Source: Pseudomonadota bacterium (GTDB lineage Bacteria > UBA10199 > 2-02-FULL-44-16 > JAAZCA01). Taken from it: a stretch of 64,000 nucleotides of DNA. A program made the translations under genes and the position numbers. Of this stretch, positions 30,078-43,404 are shown in pieces. A model generated the notes under the pieces. That model was not told the origin of the DNA, made no database searches, and worked only from the letters and a program-made list of their open reading frames with translations. How positions within the stretch are numbered: the first letter of the stretch is position 1; each line of letters opens with the position of its first letter. Location of the stretch: positions 23,226-87,225 of the forward strand of contig JAZDOG010000102.1 of the NCBI GenBank assembly GCA_043798915.1. The letters run 5' to 3'.

Positions 30078-32048
30078 ATGAAATACGACATCATCATCAT
30101 AGGCGCAGGACACGCCGGCTGCGAGGCCTCCCTCGCCGCGGCGCGGATGGGCGCCCATGTGGCGCTTGTCACGGCGAGGCGGGACACTATAGCGGCGATG
30201 AGCTGCAATCCTGCGATCGGGGGATTGGCCAAGGGCCACATCGTCCGCGAGATAGACGCTCTCGGCGGCGAGATGGCCCGCGCCGCCGACGCCACTGGCA
30301 TACAGTTTCGCCGCCTCAACATGAGCCGCGGCCCGGCGGTGCGCGCCACGCGCTGCCAGTCCGACCGAAAGCACTACCATCTCTATATGCGGGCGGCGAT
30401 CGAGGCAGAGGAGAACATCGATATCATCGAGGCTGAAGCAGTTGCGCTTTTGACAGACCCCTCCCCCTCGATGGGGGAGGGCAAGGGTGGGGGTGATCTT
30501 GGCAATCGCGGCCACCCTCACCCCGACCCTCTCCCCTCAAGGGAGAGGGAAAAGAGTGTCATCAAGGGCGTTACGATAAAAGGCACGGGAGAGGTCAACC
30601 CGAAGCAGGAACTCAGCGCATCGCGTGTCATCGTCACGACCGGTACTTTTTTAAACGGCCTGCTTCATTTCGGAATGGAATCGGGACCCGGCGGTCGCAT
30701 CGGCGACCACGTCGCCGGCGGCCTCTCTGCATCGCTCGCATCGCTGGGCTTCGCGCTCGGTCGACTCAAGACCGGTACTTGTCCCAGACTCGCGCGCGAC
30801 ACCGTCGACTTCAGCGTCTGTGAGCGCCAAGATGGGGACGATCCACGGCCGCGCTTCTCGGACGACGATGTGGGGAATATGTTGCCTGAGCTCCCCTGTC
30901 ACATCACGTACACGACGCCGGAGACGCACGCCGTGATCCGGGCAAATCTCTCGCGCTCTCCGCTCTACAGCGGCCGCATCAGGGGAACAGGGCCCCGCTA
31001 TTGCCCCTCGATCGAGGACAAGGTCGTCCGCTTCGCCGAGCGCGACCGTCACCAGCTCTTCCTTGAACCGGAGGGTATCGACACCGACTGGATCTATGTG
31101 AACGGCCTCTCGACATCACTGCCGCTGGACGCTCAGCGCGAGATGTTGAAGACGATACCGGGACTGGAGCACGCAGAGATAGTGCAACCCGGCTACGCCG
31201 TAGAATACGATTTCGTCCCTCCCACGCAGCTCAAGGCCACGCTCGAGACAAAGCTCGTGGACGGCCTCTATCTCGCCGGACAGATCAACGGGACGTCCGG
31301 CTATGAGGAGGCGGCGGCGCAGGGGTTGATCGCCGGAATCAACGCGACGTGCGCACTGCGCAAAGAGGGCGAAATAATCCTCAGGCGTGACGAATCGTAC
31401 ATCGGCGTCCTCATCGACGACCTCGTCACGAAGGGAACGGACGAGCCGTACCGCATGTTCACATCGAGGGCGGAATACAGGCTCCTGCTTCGTGAGGACA
31501 ACTCCGCAGAGAGGCTCTCTCCGCTGGGACGGAAGCTGGGCCTGATAAAGGACGAGAGGTGGCAAAGATTCAAAGACAGACAGGAGGCGCTGAAACGAAC
31601 CATCTCGATCCTCAAGGAGACGGCGGTGGCACCCACGACGGAGACAAACGCCGCGCTCGGCGCGATGGGGAGCTCCTCGCTCAAGAAACCGGCCTGCCTC
31701 GCCGACCTCGTGGCGCGGCCCGAGCTCGGCATCAGGGAGGTCCTCTCCGCATTCGCCCCGCACGCGATCACGAAAGACTACGGAGGAATGCTGGAGAGCG
31801 CAGAGATGGACACGAAATACGCCGGCTACATCAGGGCCGACCTGGAGCGCGTCGGAAAATTCATGCATCTGGAGGAGATAGGGATTCCCGCCGACTATGA
31901 ATATTCCTCTACACATGGCCTCTCGGCCGAGGCGCGCGAGAAGCTCTCGCGTATCAGGCCGGCGACTCTCGGGCAGGCCTCGCGGATTCCGGGGATCACT
32001 CCCGCGGCCATATCCGTGCTCATGGTGGCCCTTGCGTCGAGGCGCTGA
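30078..32048 (+). CDS. mnmG: tRNA modification enzyme MnmG/GidA with a ~31-aa repeat-derived insertion
   Basis: [45 protein letters not shown]. Confidence 0.98.
30458..30549. repeat. REP-like palindromic element (family A-related) inserted in-frame in mnmG
   Basis: CCCTCCCCC-tcgat-GGGGGAGGG..GGGTGGGGGTG..CACCCTCACCCC..CCCTCTCCC-ctcaa-GGGAGAGGG. Confidence 0.85.
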
Positions 32049-36599: not shown

Positions 36600-36977
36600 A
36601 TGGAAGCGCAAATGAAACATTTAATCGTGTCACTGAAGACTTCAGATGAAGTCCTCGATGAATTCAAGAAGGCTTTCCGCAAGGCCAAAAAGGGGAAAGT
36701 TAAAACTCCTCATTTTGAAATCAGCTTCGACAATAAAAGAGACTTCGACCGATTCGTGCGTAATCTCTATATCTTGAAATACATCCTCATTTTCAAACCG
36801 AAGTCGGTCTATGAGTTGGCCAAGATAGCCAAGATCGATGTGTCGAATTTGAACAAGGTAATGCTTTTCTTCGAAGAAGTAGGGGCCATCAAGGTCAAGA
36901 CGATTAAAACATCCGGCCGCGAAGTCAAAACGCCCACGGTGGCATACGACGCCATAGAATTTAAACTGACGGCTTGA
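36600..36977 (+). CDS. HVO_A0114-like wHTH DNA-binding protein
   Basis: ISFDN..KPKSVYELAK..SNLNK..GAI..KTPTVAYDAIEF. Confidence 0.7.
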   Translation: MEAQMKHLIVSLKTSDEVLDEFKKAFRKAKKGKVKTPHFEISFDNKRDFDRFVRNLYILKYILIFKPKSVYELAKIAKIDVSNLNKVMLFFEEVGAIKVKTIKTSGREVKTPTVAYDAIEFKLTA

Positions 36978-37099
36978 GACACGTGGCAGGCCCCAACTGC
37001 TCCGGGACCGATGGTTCGAGACTGATGGTTGACAGTCAGTTGTTTTTATTAATCAGCTGCGCAAAGAGACTGTCTGGTGTCCAAACTTGATCCTTCTTT

Positions 37100-38563
37100 T
37101 CAATCAATAGGCAGCACATCACTTTTTTTAGCCTTTATGCGTTCAACTGTGTTTACGGCCTTTCGAAAGCATGGATGGATTTGAACTTCCTCAAAACGGG
37201 GTTCATGACGTTCCTCATTAGAATAATAAATTTTGCTTCCACCCTCTCCCCCCTTCACAAAATCACCCAAAAACCCGATTTCATAAAGTACTCGCATAAA
37301 AGCTCTAATGTCAGTGCTCTCAACAATTTGGTTCCACCATTGCGCATTCAATTCCACTCCTGCTGCAAGTTGCAGCAGCATATCTTCAACCTCCATCTTC
37401 GACAAATGATATTTATGGCGAAAGAATTTCGTCTTCCAGTAGTTGAAGATTGCCACAAGACCCGGATATTGGTTTGAATACTCCGCGCAAAGGTCGTCCA
37501 GCTTCCATGATGAATATGGGCCTTCTGATGCCTTTAGCGCATCGGCGCTCGGCAGTGCTCCTTCAACAGATTCCGTGTAGTACCTTGCCAGCTGAATGAG
37601 CTCCCTGGGCCTGCCAAGTGTGCGCTCAACGAGCCAATTATCAGCATTGCTAGTTCCAATTGTGACTGGAAACACAGTTGAGAAGGGAGATTTCTCGGCT
37701 AGTAAGTTGTGGCAAACTCTATTATAGTTTATTCGCTGATGGAGAATATTTAACAAGTCTTCCTTGTTCCAACGAACGCGCTCAATATTTCTATACTTGT
37801 CTGCGTGCTGCGTTTTTGTGATAAGAATGGAATATACATCTTCACGCATAAACACACATGTGAAAATGTTAGGCGATCTCCCAGAGAGATAATTTGTTGC
37901 AGCCAGGAGACCAAGGAGCATATTGTTCGCGGTTAAAGAATTATCCCAACCCAGATCAAGATCATCGATCAATACAACAAATTTACCACCATCATTAGCA
38001 ATCTTCTGCATATGGTGTTCAAGGGATTCAACTTCCGCAATACTACGAAGTTCTCGCTCTACGTTGATTCCAAATTCTCCCAAGGATCCAACCTTGCCTT
38101 TAACTTTAGCAAGAATATCGGCTACATTCTCAACGAGGTCTTTTGAGGTGCGGTTCAGTTCCACTGCAATGTGTCGCGCAAATTCGATGCTGTCTTGGGC
38201 AAACTGACCTTTAGCTTTATCACCAACGACGCACAAAGAATCGAGTAGTATCTGGCGTAGCCAAACATGTTGAAAAAATATCTCCTCACCGAAAGTGTCA
38301 ACTATATCTTTTTCATTAAGAACGCTCTTGATTGAATTATATTTGGGCGAGATATTAATAACGAAAGTATTAGCTTGATCTTGGAAGTTCTGTTCGAGCT
38401 TTTTTCTAAGAGCGCTCTTGCCTGAACCTTTGCGACCGATGACGATGCATTTGCTCTTTTCATAAATACGACGAAACGCATCTGAGCTAACAAAATATTC
38501 AAGAAGATTGGGATCTTTTTCTGCGCTATCATCGCCCCATTGAATATCTGCGATCTTCATCAT
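37100..38563 (-). CDS. P-loop ATPase, Sll1717-like family
   Basis: WGDDSAEKD..YFV, GRKGSGKSA, VLIDDLD, RPRELIQ, LYEIGFLG..IHPCF; low GC; AGGAGG RBS. Confidence 0.75.
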   Translation of the reverse strand: MMKIADIQWGDDSAEKDPNLLEYFVSSDAFRRIYEKSKCIVIGRKGSGKSALRKKLEQNFQDQANTFVINISPKYNSIKSVLNEKDIVDTFGEEIFFQHVWLRQILLDSLCVVGDKAKGQFAQDSIEFARHIAVELNRTSKDLVENVADILAKVKGKVGSLGEFGINVERELRSIAEVESLEHHMQKIANDGGKFVVLIDDLDLGWDNSLTANNMLLGLLAATNYLSGRSPNIFTCVFMREDVYSILITKTQHADKYRNIERVRWNKEDLLNILHQRINYNRVCHNLLAEKSPFSTVFPVTIGTSNADNWLVERTLGRPRELIQLARYYTESVEGALPSADALKASEGPYSSWKLDDLCAEYSNQYPGLVAIFNYWKTKFFRHKYHLSKMEVEDMLLQLAAGVELNAQWWNQIVESTDIRAFMRVLYEIGFLGDFVKGGEGGSKIYYSNEERHEPRFEEVQIHPCFRKAVNTVERIKAKKSDVLPID

Positions 38564-38875
38564 GCCTCCTATTTGTCGTAAGACTTTCTCTTTTGCATCT
38601 GTACCAATTCAATGCCTTCAAGTCGAGGGTTCTTATCAGCTGGCGGCCGTTCATCTTGCCGGTTAGGGACCCATTTACACCACCACAGAGAGTTTGAATC
38701 CTTTTAATTTGAGCCTTCGATCATTTCATGGGTATATAAACAGGGGATTTAAGCGGGACGCCGCTTTAAAGATTCCACAAGCTGGGATCCCCCGTCCAGA
38801 TTGAACAGGAACAGGGGTTGTGCCAGTTAGCCGATGAGGTGCCTAATTGCACACGAAGGTTGCTCGCTATATGGA

Positions 38876-39122
38876 GTGGTGAAAGAGGGGATGACCTCAT
38901 CAGGCACCTCGCGGAACGAACCGATTTGGTCGGCGAAATGCCGCCGGTCGTGTTCCTTATGCTGTTCACGACGCCGAAGGCTGTTTGATCCGAGCGCTCA
39001 ACAATCTGACGTTGATTCTGTTGAGCGCTCGGGAGTTGCCTGAGGCGAGGCGGCATGAGACCGTTACCAAATCGTGCGAGTGTAGCGCTGGTGCCTGGTG
39101 AGGTCATCCCATCTTTCGCCAC
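38876..39122 (+). ncRNA. Candidate structured non-coding element (long branched hairpin), family unknown
   Basis: 33-bp closing stem (30 Watson-Crick, 2 G-U, 1 mismatch) plus nested 9-, 8-, 6- and 14-bp helices. Confidence 0.5.
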
Positions 39123-39137
39123 AACCAATGATTTCAC

Positions 39138-39176
39138 GGGATCGCCACGTCGGCCTTCGGCCTCCTCGCGATGACA
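39138..39176. repeat. Right half of a REP-like family B element
   Basis: GGGATCGCCACGTCG..CTCCTCGCGATGACA, as at 13761-13808. Confidence 0.75.
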
Positions 39177-39187
39177 GCGAGGACTGA

Positions 39188-40354
39188 TTATTTATACAGG
39201 AGATGCACCTTGCGTTCGGACAGAAGATTTGCGGGTGTCTTACACATCGACTTCAAATCGTCCAAAGAAAGCGCGTCGATTCCCTCGCGGAATTTGGATG
39301 AACCGGTGAGGAGGTCGATCGCCGGGCGGTTCGTGACGAATTCGTATGGCTCATGGCGCCACTCGAAGCCGCGCCCTTTGTAGAGCTTGTTCACAAGCCA
39401 GAGGAACGCGAGCCCCGTGAGATATGGCTCAAATGCGCCGACGTCGCTTATTATCCATCGGACTCCGTTGCAGATGAGGCTCTTCCATTTCTGCCGCGTC
39501 GGGATGAAGGATGAAGGGGCGACTCGCACGCCGGGGAGTTTCAGCGCCCCAAATGCCTCGATGATCTCCTCCGAATCGATATAGGGTGCGCCCACTATCT
39601 CAAACGGGGTGTCGGTCCCGCGCCCCTCGGAGATGTTGGTCCCCTCGATGAGGCACATCCCGGGATAGAGGAGCGCTGCGGTGTATGAGCACATGTTGGG
39701 CGAGGGGTTGGTCCATGGGATGCCGGTGTCGGTCCAGCTCATGTCTCGCCGCCAGCCCTCCATCGGGACGACCGTGAGATTTGCGCCGATCCCGGCCCGA
39801 TTGTTCATTAACTGAACGATCTCGCCGATCGTCATCCCGTGCCTGACCGGCAGCGAATGGAGGCCGACGAATGACTCGAAGTCCTCCTCGATCCCGCCCC
39901 CCTCGACCCGCGTGCCGCCGATTGGGTTCGGCCTGTCGCAGACGACGACCTGCTTCCCCGCCTCCGCGCAGGCCTCGGCGCAGAGGCTCGCGGTCCAGAC
40001 GTAGGTGTAGTAACGGCTGCCGACGTCCTGGAGGTCGACCACGAGGACATCTATGCCCTCTAGCATCGCCGCCGTGGGTTTGAGCGAATCGAGCGTTGCG
40101 CCGTAGAGGCTGTGTATCTGGATGCCGCTCGACGGATCGACGGCGGAGGAGACCGCCTCCATGTCCTGTGCCATCGTGAGCAGCCCGTGCTCCGGACCAA
40201 AGAGGGCGGCCATTTTCCCGCCGCCTCTCGCAATCCGGTCCACTGCATGCAGTCCCTCCGCGTTCAGGCTTGCTGCATGCGCAAGGACGCCGATCCTCCG
40301 GCCCTTGAGGAACTCCAACCGCGAATCCATGAGGACATCTATTCCGAGACGCAT
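39188..40354 (-). CDS. namZ: Exo-beta-N-acetylmuramidase NamZ (DUF1343)
   Basis: LFGPEHG, DLQDVGSRYYTY, DRPNPIGG, RHGMTIGE, PSPNM, SEGRGT. Confidence 0.9.
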   Translation of the reverse strand: MRLGIDVLMDSRLEFLKGRRIGVLAHAASLNAEGLHAVDRIARGGGKMAALFGPEHGLLTMAQDMEAVSSAVDPSSGIQIHSLYGATLDSLKPTAAMLEGIDVLVVDLQDVGSRYYTYVWTASLCAEACAEAGKQVVVCDRPNPIGGTRVEGGGIEEDFESFVGLHSLPVRHGMTIGEIVQLMNNRAGIGANLTVVPMEGWRRDMSWTDTGIPWTNPSPNMCSYTAALLYPGMCLIEGTNISEGRGTDTPFEIVGAPYIDSEEIIEAFGALKLPGVRVAPSSFIPTRQKWKSLICNGVRWIISDVGAFEPYLTGLAFLWLVNKLYKGRGFEWRHEPYEFVTNRPAIDLLTGSSKFREGIDALSLDDLKSMCKTPANLLSERKVHLLYK

Positions 40355-40468
40355 ATGAAGTTTCTATCAGAATTTTTTCTGAAAGTCAGGCACAGAGTCG
40401 GGTGATTGACGTCTGAGGCGGTTCACGATAGAGCACGAAGCCTGTTCGCCAATCAAGGAGGGAGATCC

Positions 40469-41731
40469 ATGAAGCTCAATCAGGACCGGCTCGTCGACAG
40501 ATTCGTGAAGTACGCCCGGATCGACACCCAATCGGACCCGGAATCCAAAGCCACCCCCAGCACGCCGGGGCAGCTCGTGCTCGCGACGATCGTCGCCGAG
40601 GACATGCGCCAGGCTGGGATCGCCGACGTCCAGATGATGGCGGAGGGCTTCGTCTTCGGGACCATCCCCGAGAATCTCCCCGAGAACCATCCGGCGAAGG
40701 GCAAGGCCCCGACGCTCGGTTTTCTGGCGCACTTCGACACGGCGGGCGAAGCGCCGGGGGCGAACGTCGAACCACAATTCATCAAAAACTATCAGGGAGG
40801 AGCGGTTCGTTTCCCCAAGAATCCGGAGATCACGCTCACGCCGGACACCACCCCGCACCTCAAGCGCTGCATCGGCCACACTCTCATCACGAGCGACGGG
40901 ACGACGCTCCTGGGCGGAGGTGACAAGGCGGGCATCGCGCTGCTCGTGGAGCTCGCGCACGCCTGTCGGGAAAATCCGGAGATCCTGCACGGAAAAATCC
41001 GCCTCGCGATCATCCCGGACGAAGAGATCGGCGTCGGAACGGAAAAGCTCGACCTTAAGACATTCAGCGCCGACGTCGCCTACACGTTCGACGGCGGCGA
41101 GATGGGCGAGATCGACATCGAGAGCTTCAACGGCTTCATGGGCAAGGTCGAGGTGGAGGGCTACGCCGCATTCCCGGGCTACGGCAAGGGGGTCTACCTC
41201 AACGCGATCCAGGTCCTCTCGAAGTTCATCGCGGCGATGGAAGATCGACGATGGCCGCAAAACTCCGACGGCCGCGACCCGATCTGGTGGATCCAGAGCA
41301 TGGAGGGCAAGGTCGCCAGGGCCTCCGCGGCGGTCTACCTGCGCGACTTCGACCTGCAGGGCATCGAGAAACAGAAGCAGATCCTCGCCGGAGTTCGGCA
41401 GCAGATCCTCAAGGAGTTCCCCAAGGCGAAGATCGCGATCGACATCGACGAGAGCTATCGCAATTACAAATTCCTGCTGGAGAAGGACCCCCGGATCGTC
41501 GCGTACGCCGAAGAGGCGATGCGCCGCATCGGCATCGAACCCAGGAAAAACTACGTGCGCGGAGGCAACGACGCCTGCCACCTCTGCGTCAACGGGCTCC
41601 TCTCGACCAATCTCTTCGTCGGCATGCAGAACATGCACAGCCTCGCCGAATGGAACACGGTCGAGTCGATCGAGGGGGCGCTCAAGACCGCGATCTCCCT
41701 CTGCGGCGTCTGGCTCGACCATTCAGTTTAA
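40469..41731 (+). CDS. pepT: Peptidase T-like M20 tripeptidase
   Basis: IDTQSD..PSTPGQ, AHFDT, TLLGGGDKAG, PDEEIG, AYTFDGG, RGG.D, NMHS.E. Confidence 0.85.
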   Translation: MKLNQDRLVDRFVKYARIDTQSDPESKATPSTPGQLVLATIVAEDMRQAGIADVQMMAEGFVFGTIPENLPENHPAKGKAPTLGFLAHFDTAGEAPGANVEPQFIKNYQGGAVRFPKNPEITLTPDTTPHLKRCIGHTLITSDGTTLLGGGDKAGIALLVELAHACRENPEILHGKIRLAIIPDEEIGVGTEKLDLKTFSADVAYTFDGGEMGEIDIESFNGFMGKVEVEGYAAFPGYGKGVYLNAIQVLSKFIAAMEDRRWPQNSDGRDPIWWIQSMEGKVARASAAVYLRDFDLQGIEKQKQILAGVRQQILKEFPKAKIAIDIDESYRNYKFLLEKDPRIVAYAEEAMRRIGIEPRKNYVRGGNDACHLCVNGLLSTNLFVGMQNMHSLAEWNTVESIEGALKTAISLCGVWLDHSV

Positions 41732-41744
41732 AAGGAGAAATACT

Positions 41745-42134
41745 ATGTCACTCAAAATAGTGAATACGGAGAAAGCACCGAAGGCGGTGGGGCCTTACAG
41801 CCAGGCGATCCGCGCCGGGGAGTTCCTCTTCTGCTCCGGCCAGATCCCGATCGATCCGGCCACCGGCAGGCTCGAGCTCTTCGACGGCAACGTCGCCGAG
41901 CAGACGAAGATCGTGATGACGAATCTCAAAGCGGTGCTCGCGGCAGAGGGTCTGTCGTTCAAGGACGTGGTGAAGACCACGATATATCTCTCGGACATGG
42001 AGAACTTCGCCCAGGTCAACGAGATGTACGCCTCGTTCCTCGGCGACCATAGGCCGGCGCGGGCGACCGTCGAGGTCGCCCGCCTCCCCAAGGATGTCGG
42101 CGTGGAGATCGACGCCATAGCCTGGGCAGGATAA
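41745..42134 (+). CDS. ridA: RidA-family enamine deaminase
   Basis: [39 protein letters not shown]. Confidence 0.95.
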   Translation: MSLKIVNTEKAPKAVGPYSQAIRAGEFLFCSGQIPIDPATGRLELFDGNVAEQTKIVMTNLKAVLAAEGLSFKDVVKTTIYLSDMENFAQVNEMYASFLGDHRPARATVEVARLPKDVGVEIDAIAWAG

Positions 42135-42235
42135 TGCCAATGGCATTGCAAAATAATGATAAAAATCAATATATTGAAAAGAAAAAACTCCAATAGTCAT
42201 CATATCTCTTGATAACTACATAAAATGTGTATACG

Positions 42236-42257
42236 CTTATTATGTATACATAATAAG
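42236..42257. promoter_or_regulatory. 22-bp perfect palindrome upstream of the AAA ATPase (putative operator)
   Basis: CTTATTATGTA|TACATAATAAG; GTATAC occurs three times (42229, 42244, 42257). Confidence 0.6.
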
Positions 42258-42273
42258 TATACGTGGAGTGCTT

Positions 42274-43404
42274 ATGAAAAATCCTTTTCGCTACGGCGTA
42301 CCCGTAAGTGGCGATTATTATTTTCCGCGCCCTGATTTTTCGAAAAAACTTTCTCCCTATACCCTGTCGGGTCAGAAAATCCTTCTATATGGCCGCAGGA
42401 GGTTTGGAAAAACTTCGTTTCTGAAGGAGTACTCCGACACCCTCAAAGAGAAAGGCAGCGCGTCCGTATTCGTCGACGTCTATCCCATCACATCGTTGCG
42501 CGATTTCCTGCATGCCCTGTCTGCCGGCATAAAGGAGAGCGGGCTTCTTTCGACGACGGATCGAATGAAAGGGATCGTATTCGATCTCTTCCGAACCCGG
42601 CCACGACTCGCTGTGGAGGGAGACTCCACTTCGCTCGATTTTTTCATTCCGTCGCTTAAAGACGACGATGTCAAATCCGCCATCGAAGATACGATCCGGC
42701 TCTTTGGAAAAATCGCCGAAGCGCAGCCGATCGTCGTCGTCTTCGATGAGTTCCAGAAGATTGCTGAAATAGATGACGCGGGATGGCTCGAGGGAACGCT
42801 CCGGAGCGAAATACAAAAACAGGAGGCCGTGCCTTACATATTCTGCGGCTCGCGGCGAGGCCTCATACTCGATATGTTTCAAAACTCTTCGAGACCGTTC
42901 TATCAGATGTGCACGGCCATAGAACTCCCCCGCCTGCAGGATGATTTTGCGAAGTGGCTGCGCACAAAACTGCTCGGCGCAAAAGTCGCCATCGATTCTG
43001 AAACATCACTTGCCTTGCTGGACAAAATCAATTGGAGTCCTAACTACGCTCAGATGATCGCATTTCACCTTGTAGCGGATCCTCCCGAAGGAAATGTCAG
43101 CGTCGATGATATTGAACGCGTCCTGGATGCGCTCTGCCAGCTGAACGGCTACACGTATATGACGCTCTACGATTCGCTCGGCGCAAATGCGCAGCGGCTC
43201 CTGCGCCTTGTCGCAAAAAATCCAGGCCAGAGCCCCTTCCGCCAGGAACTGATGGCAACATTCGATTTGAGAACGTCGGGCGTTCAGTCCGCCATTCGCA
43301 GCCTGATCAACAGACACATCCTGGATGACACGACGTCGGGCGGGAACGTTTATTTTGACGATCCGCTTTTTTCCAGATGGCTCAAGACCAGGTTGGGGTA
43401 CTGA
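42274..43404 (+). CDS. Standalone AAA/STAND-like ATPase (archaeal-ATPase type) with C-terminal wHTH
   Basis: [35 protein letters not shown]. Confidence 0.85.

Follow-up and report, generated by a model that had tools for sequence, protein, structure and literature searches.

What is the rod-like hairpin of 247 nt that occupies positions 38876-39122 of a 64,000-nt stretch of DNA from a Pseudomonadota bacterium (assembly GCA_043798915.1, contig JAZDOG010000102.1, positions 23,226 to 87,225 of the forward strand; this whole stretch is called the window here)? A first-pass annotation, made from the letters of the window alone, had taken it for an undescribed structured element acting as a single strand, and had also offered several known kinds of RNA and of mobile DNA as alternatives. 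Homologue searches, the lack of any Rfam match and strong covariation all upheld the description as an undescribed, structured, single-strand element. Our preferred reading, which we hold tentatively, is that the hairpin is a candidate member of a family of structured non-coding RNA (ncRNA) genes, multi-copy and lineage-restricted, with a functional + strand, and that it is one of two copies in its genome. This genome, which is 97% complete, is labelled G000, and the other G-labels refer to the related genomes with which it was compared.

The hairpin is far more stable than expected by chance. The + strand of 38876-39122 folds with a minimum free energy (MFE) of -151.7 kcal/mol, relative to a mean of -88.1 ± 4.8 kcal/mol for dinucleotide-shuffled sequences (z = -13.2), and none of 200 shuffles was as stable; the shuffling comparison proposed in the first-pass annotation thus came out in favor of the fold. 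The - strand reaches -137.6 kcal/mol (z = -12.3). By the repeat finder, the closing arms are 91% complementary over 33 nt and the apical arms (38990-39003/39019-39032) are 100% complementary over 14 nt. In the closing stem, 30 pairs are Watson-Crick, 2 are G-U when read on the + strand and 1 position is otherwise mismatched, in agreement with the earlier statement that two of its three imperfections are G-U. All helices named previously were recovered by the repeat finder and the MFE fold of the + strand, with one adjustment: the short helix at 38978-38981/39038-39041 exists, but merely as part of the interrupted 7-bp helix P6. On the other hand, the 13/15-nt bubble drawn just past the closing stem is not open, as it holds the 3-bp helix P1 and a lone pair, along with G-A dinucleotides that are conserved and face each other. 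Conservation within the core is highest in the internal loops and at the junction, and both hairpin tips are variable in length as well as in sequence. The rod is placed between two - strand genes, 66 nt to the left of the end of a NamZ gene and 313 nt to the right of the start of an ATPase gene. The intergenic region had been described as otherwise empty; it does lie between genes, but it also contains a separate 38-nt dispersed repeat. The coordinates of all features are collected in Table 1.

Table 1. Features of the hairpin and its surroundings, in window coordinates.
Feature	Position	Strand	Basis or remark
Sll1717-family P-loop ATPase	37100-38563	-	NF047389, 247.3 bits (cut-off 75)
Upstream "leader" resembling sequence upstream of rods in G005 and of G001_C11	38775-38846	+	alignment
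Weak promoter-like TTGCAC-N15-TATATG, candidate	38847-38873	+	sequence only
Variable closing stem, 5' arm, 33 nt	38876-38908	+	pairs with 39090-39122
Conserved core, 181 nt, GA-rich loops leading to a three-way junction	38909-39089	+	model R1, 197.3 bits, E 2.3e-46
P1, 3 bp	38910-38912/39085-39087	+	helix map
Lone pair beside 5' halves of GA-rich loops	38916/39081	+	helix map
P2	38920-38929/39067-39077	+	paired in 99% of cells; 9/10 pairs compensatory
P3	38931-38934/39059-39063	+	helix map
P4, 8 bp, preceded by tandem G-A/A-G loop	38938-38945/39049-39056	+	8/8 pairs covary
P5 side hairpin, 6-bp stem, variable loop	38947-38952/38967-38972	+	cells 97.7% paired
P6	38973-38981/39038-39046	+	interrupted 7-bp helix
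Conserved loop strands TGTnTGA and GAGTT	within 38973-39046 (P6-P7 arm)	+	alignment
Apical P7	38989-39002/39020-39033	+	14/14 apical pairs covary
Variable closing stem, 3' arm	39090-39122	+	91% complementary to 5' arm
Dispersed 38-nt hairpin repeat, distinct from the rod	39139-39176	+	17 nt downstream of the rod
NamZ exo-beta-N-acetylmuramidase	39188-40354	-	PF07075, 250.9 bits; PF20732, 137.7 bits

Having established the fold, we looked for relatives of the hairpin. When the intergenic region was compared by BLAST with 41 related genomes, only the inner ~185 nt of the rod matched (70-78% identity), with several matching places in each of the genomes G008 and G005, and folding of these places returned the same inner structure with closing stems of different sequence. 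Five aligned copies gave an RNAalifold consensus of 82 pairs, of which 41 showed compensatory changes, and a covariance model of the core only (R1, 183 positions) was built from five copies. Within the family, R1 found 35 copies in 7/13 genomes, distributed as 11 in G003, 10 in G005, 7 in G001, 2 each in G000, G008 and G012, and 1 in G011. A second family of the order contributed 5 copies in one genome, bringing the carriers to 8/22 genomes of the order, and a third contributed 5 copies in two genomes (10/93 genomes of the class). A whole-genome nhmmer profile run on G000 returned exactly two copies, the one in the window and C37:921-1114. Across copies, rods measure 211-393 nt. A stringent core pattern, which recovers 21/35 known copies, detected only four metagenome-assembled genomes (MAGs) among ~185,000 species represented by one genome each, and all four were already-known carriers. 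The same pattern identified 12 loci on metagenome contigs, all confirmed by R1 and two of them with head-to-head pairs, and a relaxed core pattern had no match on the viral contigs scanned.

Some features of the arrangement of copies were recorded along the way. The head-to-head pairs on metagenome contigs are ~110-170 nt apart (L105:698-1258 and L109:698-1192), and same-strand pairs separated by 1.1-1.3 kb occur in G003 (C1:112568-114014 and C1:1002759-1004010). Among the 35 family copies, 30 were reported on the + strand of their contig, which is unexpected for arbitrarily oriented drafts; in G003 this excess was unrelated to GC skew, and it may reflect chance or a property of the search. 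A 5'-truncated copy (G008:C1:60211-60281, L030) has the same outer flanks as a full copy on G008:C179, and with these common flanks the rod is more than 350 nt long.

The covariation in the core is unusually dense. In 51 copies aligned to R1, and thereby fitted to the structure of the model, 93.7% of 2601 cells are standard pairs, versus 31.6-40.1% after a shift of the 3' partners by 1-3 columns. Changes on both sides were found in 48/53 core pairs (44/53 in a 36-copy set), and none of 500 column shuffles reached any of five pairing measures. The closing stem follows a different rule. It is present in every copy, with 17-81 nt per side and near-perfect pairing, and its sequence differs between copies; the arms of the 35 family copies add up to 1193 Watson-Crick pairs, 37 G-U, 20 A-C, 66 other mismatches and 43 gaps. 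The arms change in sequence much faster than the cores do. In G003, cores are 84% identical and arms 53%, close to the 49% of shuffled arms; the corresponding values are 76% and 62% in G001, and the two G000 copies are 64% identical in the core, 58% in the 5' arm and 50% in the 3' arm. Since the G003 arms have drifted to the shuffled level yet still pair, and their cores remain alike, both the core sequence and the pairing of the arms are maintained. In G005, cores (90%) and arms (91%) are equally alike at ten different loci, and in a G001 subgroup the arms at different loci are up to 90% identical, which indicates that arms travel with the duplicating element. Together with a recognisable arm motif common to both G000 copies, these shared arms rule out that the arms are rebuilt from the DNA at each new site. 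We also considered the arms of the two G000 copies as guides and found no second-site match in their own genome (best 14 nt exact, E 0.17).

Which strand does the conservation concern? In 47/50 copies the + strand folds more stably than its reverse complement does, by a mean of 10.5 kcal/mol and in all 11 genome groups, in line with the + strand preference suggested initially. Conserved unpaired columns read on this strand are 34% A, 32% G, 25% U and 10% C. Three internal loops consist of a near-invariant G-A facing another G-A, and would be pyrimidine-pyrimidine mismatches if read on the other strand. Facing G-A dinucleotides are the arrangement of tandem sheared G-A pairs. Similarly, G-U outnumbers A-C in the core (70 vs 41) and in the arms (37 vs 20). 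The covariation, the branched core with its G-A loops and the strand preference together make it certain that the working molecule is a single strand, and RNA, rather than single-stranded DNA, is most likely that molecule.

A coding element was considered and rejected, as core lengths vary (157-257 nt overall, and 170, 171, 172 and 173 nt within one genome), frames fall in varying phases and no reading frame is conserved. The 123-aa open reading frame (ORF) at 38766-39137 on the - strand matched no Pfam family, and 22/50 rods have no open frame. Stop-free frames were seen in 28/50 rods, compared with ~10.9 expected from shuffles, mostly on the - strand and in varying phases; this excess probably comes from the pyrimidine-rich loops of that strand and not from coding.

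We proceeded to determine the genomic context of the copies. Flanking ORFs were annotated for 42/55 copies, the 13 copies on metagenome contigs being left out. All copies are intergenic, with a median of ~90 nt from the core to the downstream ORF, and no gene partner was found. The neighbor at 37100-38563 is a Sll1717-type ATPase as first described, and the proposal that the hairpin acts with it was examined through their linkage: a Sll1717/AAA_16-type neighbor occurs at the window copy only, and one other copy adjoins an unrelated AAA_14/DUF4143 ATPase. The second G000 copy lies between a Gp49/HigB-like gene and PEPCK. Elsewhere the neighbors are unrelated housekeeping genes (for example release factor, QueA, MnmG, GidB, glutamate synthase, thioredoxin, endonuclease III, PolA, Dus, YkuD and FolE), and the only recurrent ones are Fic and cytidine deaminase, twice each. 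Orientation relative to the nearest ORFs is random: among the 38 copies with an ORF on each side (two-sided copies), 11 are opposite to both neighbors, 11 have the same strand as both, 9 are same/opposite and 7 opposite/same. As to the window itself, the rod falls in a patch (36600-43404) with three poorly characterised genes. The Sll1717 ATPase has weak PADLOC matches to PDC-M28C and PifA, and the other two genes encode a small HVO_A0114-like protein (36600-36977) and a second ATPase of archaeal type (42268-43404); this patch may be a variable or defence-like islet.

The immediate flanks were also compared. The TTGCAC-N15-TATATG string reported upstream of the rod is indeed present, and a similar TTGCAC...TATCTA string precedes some G005 copies. 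Further upstream, part of the leader (38775-38828) has BLAST matches away from any rod, at G003:C2:848633-848686 (81%), G003:C2:841504-841536 (88%) and G012:C1:145501-145596 (73%), and the whole leader may itself be another repeat module with a tendency to neighbor the rod. Beyond the rod, similarity continues for ~100 nt upstream and 30-50 nt downstream in G005, in the window and in the metagenome group, and the true unit may therefore be longer than the rod and asymmetric. The 38-nt repeat downstream looks REP-like, and it differs from another repeat of the window, at 30459-30557. The query stretch that holds it accounted for most of the listed BLAST matches (81-97% identity, often at several places per genome), 19/41 genomes matched some part of that query, and G000 contains 3 near copies of the repeat. 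Many matches to the Y1 transposase family PF01797 (Y1_Tnp) lie in unusually long frames of ~315-365 aa, at 2-11 matches per genome, and the proteins concerned may be the enzymes behind this small repeat.

None of the known families that we compared accounts for the element. The Rfam search called for in the first-pass annotation was run with Rfam 15: over 38400-39400 of the window the best score was 21.1 bits against a gathering threshold of 37 (E 0.66) in a search extending to E 10, and at 8 other copy loci (E up to 0.1) a single chance miRNA match was returned (28.7 vs 98 bits). A literature search, partly framed on an Omnitrophota-like lineage, retrieved general papers on repeats and ncRNAs, none of them describing the element. 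TwoAYGGAY (RF01731) and similar Rfam motifs likewise combine a conserved center with a closing stem that is free to vary as long as it pairs, and are often multi-copy, but the rod has no Rfam match to RF01731, and its core is several times larger and branched. HEARO/omega RNA, ROOL and GOLLD are large ncRNAs, of functions that are unknown or were found recently, which spread with mobile DNA and are linked to IscB/TnpB or to prophages. Like them, the rod is large, has a complex fold that is conserved and reaches several copies in the genomes of some hosts, but it has no recurrent neighbor, is absent from the viral contigs scanned and matches none of them in Rfam.

Dispersed repeats offer closer parallels. 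REPs are units of 20-40 nt, and REPINs are doublets with conserved arms. They are hairpin-forming and dispersed like the rod, and are described as mobilised by RAYT (Y1) transposases (PMC3116915), and Y1 transposase genes are present in the genomes with rods. In contrast, the arms of the rod are variable, its 183-nt core is central and the presence of Y1_Tnp does not track it. According to a review (Delihas 2011, PMC3184786), bcr1 of the Bacillus cereus group is ~155 bp long, has 5-bp flanking direct repeats and is transcribed; as there described, it shares with the rod a multi-copy, non-coding nature, a non-conserved distribution and a stable fold kept by compensatory changes. The rod differs in its length, in the absence of direct repeats at its ends, in the conserved branched center and in its copy-specific arms, and its transcription is predicted only. 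Miniature inverted-repeat transposable elements (MITEs) such as ERIC, Correia/NEMIS and YPAL are, in the same review (PMC3184786), non-autonomous, intergenic and multi-copy elements of up to ~400 bp with long stem-loops, and conserved terminal inverted repeats together with target-site duplications are what defines them. The rod inverts this pattern, as its center is conserved and its terminal arms differ, and it has no detectable duplication of a target site. Structured repeats that are dispersed and preserved through compensatory changes are a known kind, with bcr1 as an example (PMC3184786); the novelty of the rod lies in how large and complex its core is, in how long its stalk is and in the absence of any transposition signature.

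The rival that survives best, which we consider possible and somewhat less probable than an ncRNA gene family, is that the rod is a selfish DNA repeat, a non-autonomous hairpin of the MITE/REPIN/ERIC type in a broad sense, which would fold as single-stranded or cruciform DNA and be mobilised by a recombinase or transposase in trans. The covariation would then result from selection for mobilisation competence in the genealogy of the element itself and from template switching within the hairpin, and any RNA would be a by-product. Several points weigh against an ncRNA family. Genera of a single family differ in copy number from 0 to 11, and the copies are found at non-orthologous sites, which is the behavior of mobile DNA. 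Compensated changes in long palindromes can arise through DNA-level template switching, without selection on RNA, and the copies behind our pair counts are related rather than independent, in an alignment guided by the very structure being counted. The overall G-U to A-C ratio of ~1.7:1 is modest for an RNA, being lower than expected for a typical RNA family and based on counts that are not independent. A sigma-70 scan of 38500-39300 called no promoter, over 50 copies the upstream side was no more promoter-like than the downstream side (7.24 vs 7.12 of 12), and no terminator was established either. A look-up of sequencing runs for 38300-39500 listed none. Finally, in about a quarter of contexts, both G000 copies included, read-through from a neighbor is unable to make the + strand RNA.

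Besides this patchy distribution, with carriers in few genomes of the class, and the missing promoter signal, a selfish repeat would also fit the recent burst in G005 (10 copies at different loci), the unrelated neighbors and random orientation, the truncated or insertion-bearing copies (G008:C1; G001_C9, 257 nt; G012_C51, 217 nt), the Y1/HUH transposase genes of these genomes and the group II introns that many-copy carriers also have. The marks of transposition, however, are missing. The arms of each copy are inverted repeats of each other but differ between copies, down to random level in G003, so there are no conserved terminal inverted repeats for a transposase to use. The best direct repeat at most 14 nt from the rod ends averaged 3.27 nt, versus 3.22 nt in shuffled pairings (52 copies), a comparison that takes the rod ends for the element ends, which could lie outside; G001_C7 is the lone copy with a 9-nt direct repeat. 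Hence the earlier MITE alternative fits in part: the element is small, non-coding and multi-copy (1-11 copies per genome), and is dispersed over many non-orthologous sites, but its ends are not conserved and show no target-site duplication. Comparisons within the same genera gave no pair of filled and empty sites, as the flanks of G001_C11 in G010 and of G011_C67 in G006 led to different contigs at 69-80% identity. Y1_Tnp is encoded in 78/93 class genomes versus 10/93 for the element, and its co-occurrence was discarded as uninformative. In IS200/IS605-type single-strand transposition, orientation follows the direction of replication. Unlike such elements, the copies on three G003 contigs with clear GC-skew domains are oriented, relative to the skew, 5 one way and 6 the other. 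Moreover, no copy was found on viral contigs, and a 183-nt three-way junction with three G-A loops and a strand preference is more elaborate than the transposase hairpins we are aware of.

We regard as unlikely that the rod is a cis-acting transcript element, which would stabilise or terminate the mRNA of a neighboring gene or direct its cleavage by RNase III, as is reported for REP, ERIC and Correia elements. The location of all copies between genes, often near a gene end, is consistent with such a role, a long duplex could serve as a target or barrier for nucleases, and repeats of this sort are often transcribed and affect expression according to the review (PMC3184786). Yet the conserved strand is opposite to both neighbors in 11/38 two-sided copies (55 examined), both G000 copies among them, and copies favor neither the upstream nor the downstream side of genes on the same strand. 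For such a role a simple hairpin would also be enough, which leaves the conserved branched core unexplained.

The remaining proposals of the first-pass annotation are an atypical 6S RNA and an orphan retron ncRNA. 6S RNA is present in one or two copies per genome and has a large open central bubble between its closing and terminal stems. The rod has the long closing stem and rod-like shape, but no Rfam 6S match, up to 11 copies per genome and a structured "bubble". A retron ncRNA (msr-msd) is defined by an adjacent reverse transcriptase (RT) gene, and the whole of G000 has no RVT_1 match. RVT_1 is present in 4/5 carriers tested (G001, G003, G005 and G012 among them), and was over the cut-off in 0/5 non-carriers (G002, G004, G006, G007 and G009). 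Three of the carrier RT genes are group II introns, all lie on other contigs or far from any copy, the best R1 score beside them was 13 bits, and copies also occur in G000 and G008, which have no RT at all. Retro-mobility of the element was rejected on these grounds, and the association of RT genes with carriers is read as general mobile-element load. Overall, in spite of the proximity of the window copy to the ATPase, it is very improbable that the hairpin is a partner RNA of the Sll1717 ATPase, shared by 1 of 42 contexts, a 6S RNA, with no Rfam match of any kind, or a retron ncRNA.

How might an ncRNA of this kind work? We propose that its genes duplicate to new intergenic sites, and that the core of ~183 nt, with four short stacked helices, tandem G-A loops, a three-way junction and two hairpins with free tips, would be the working part, most likely as a protein-binding or tertiary-folded platform. 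The closing stem of 17-81 bp would need only to pair, possibly in order to protect the ends. Where it reaches at least 22 bp, it could also be a stalk for RNase III-type processing, by which the core is freed from the transcript that contains it, much as happens with the stems flanking rRNA. A bolder version, which we think improbable, is that the copies form a new class of rod RNAs of ~210-390 nt, each with a G-A-platform junction core on a copy-specific double-stranded RNA (dsRNA) stalk of 17-81 bp, maintained separately as up to 11 paralogues per genome and with no known transposition signature. If so, the unique stalks would do more than close the rod: they would have functions of their own, such as giving rise to small duplex RNAs specific to each locus, or marking each RNA with an address that a dsRNA-binding machine reads.

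In either case the pattern of conservation is odd, with a fixed center, ends that are free in sequence yet always paired, and spread without the known hallmarks of transposition. Large RNAs with elaborate folds that are conserved are, to our knowledge, seldom found in bacteria, and those that have been solved perform sophisticated biochemistry. If the element is a selfish DNA, it would point to a mechanism of mobilisation that uses neither conserved ends nor target duplications; if it is an RNA, it would be a new class of large ncRNA from a poorly studied, uncultured lineage.

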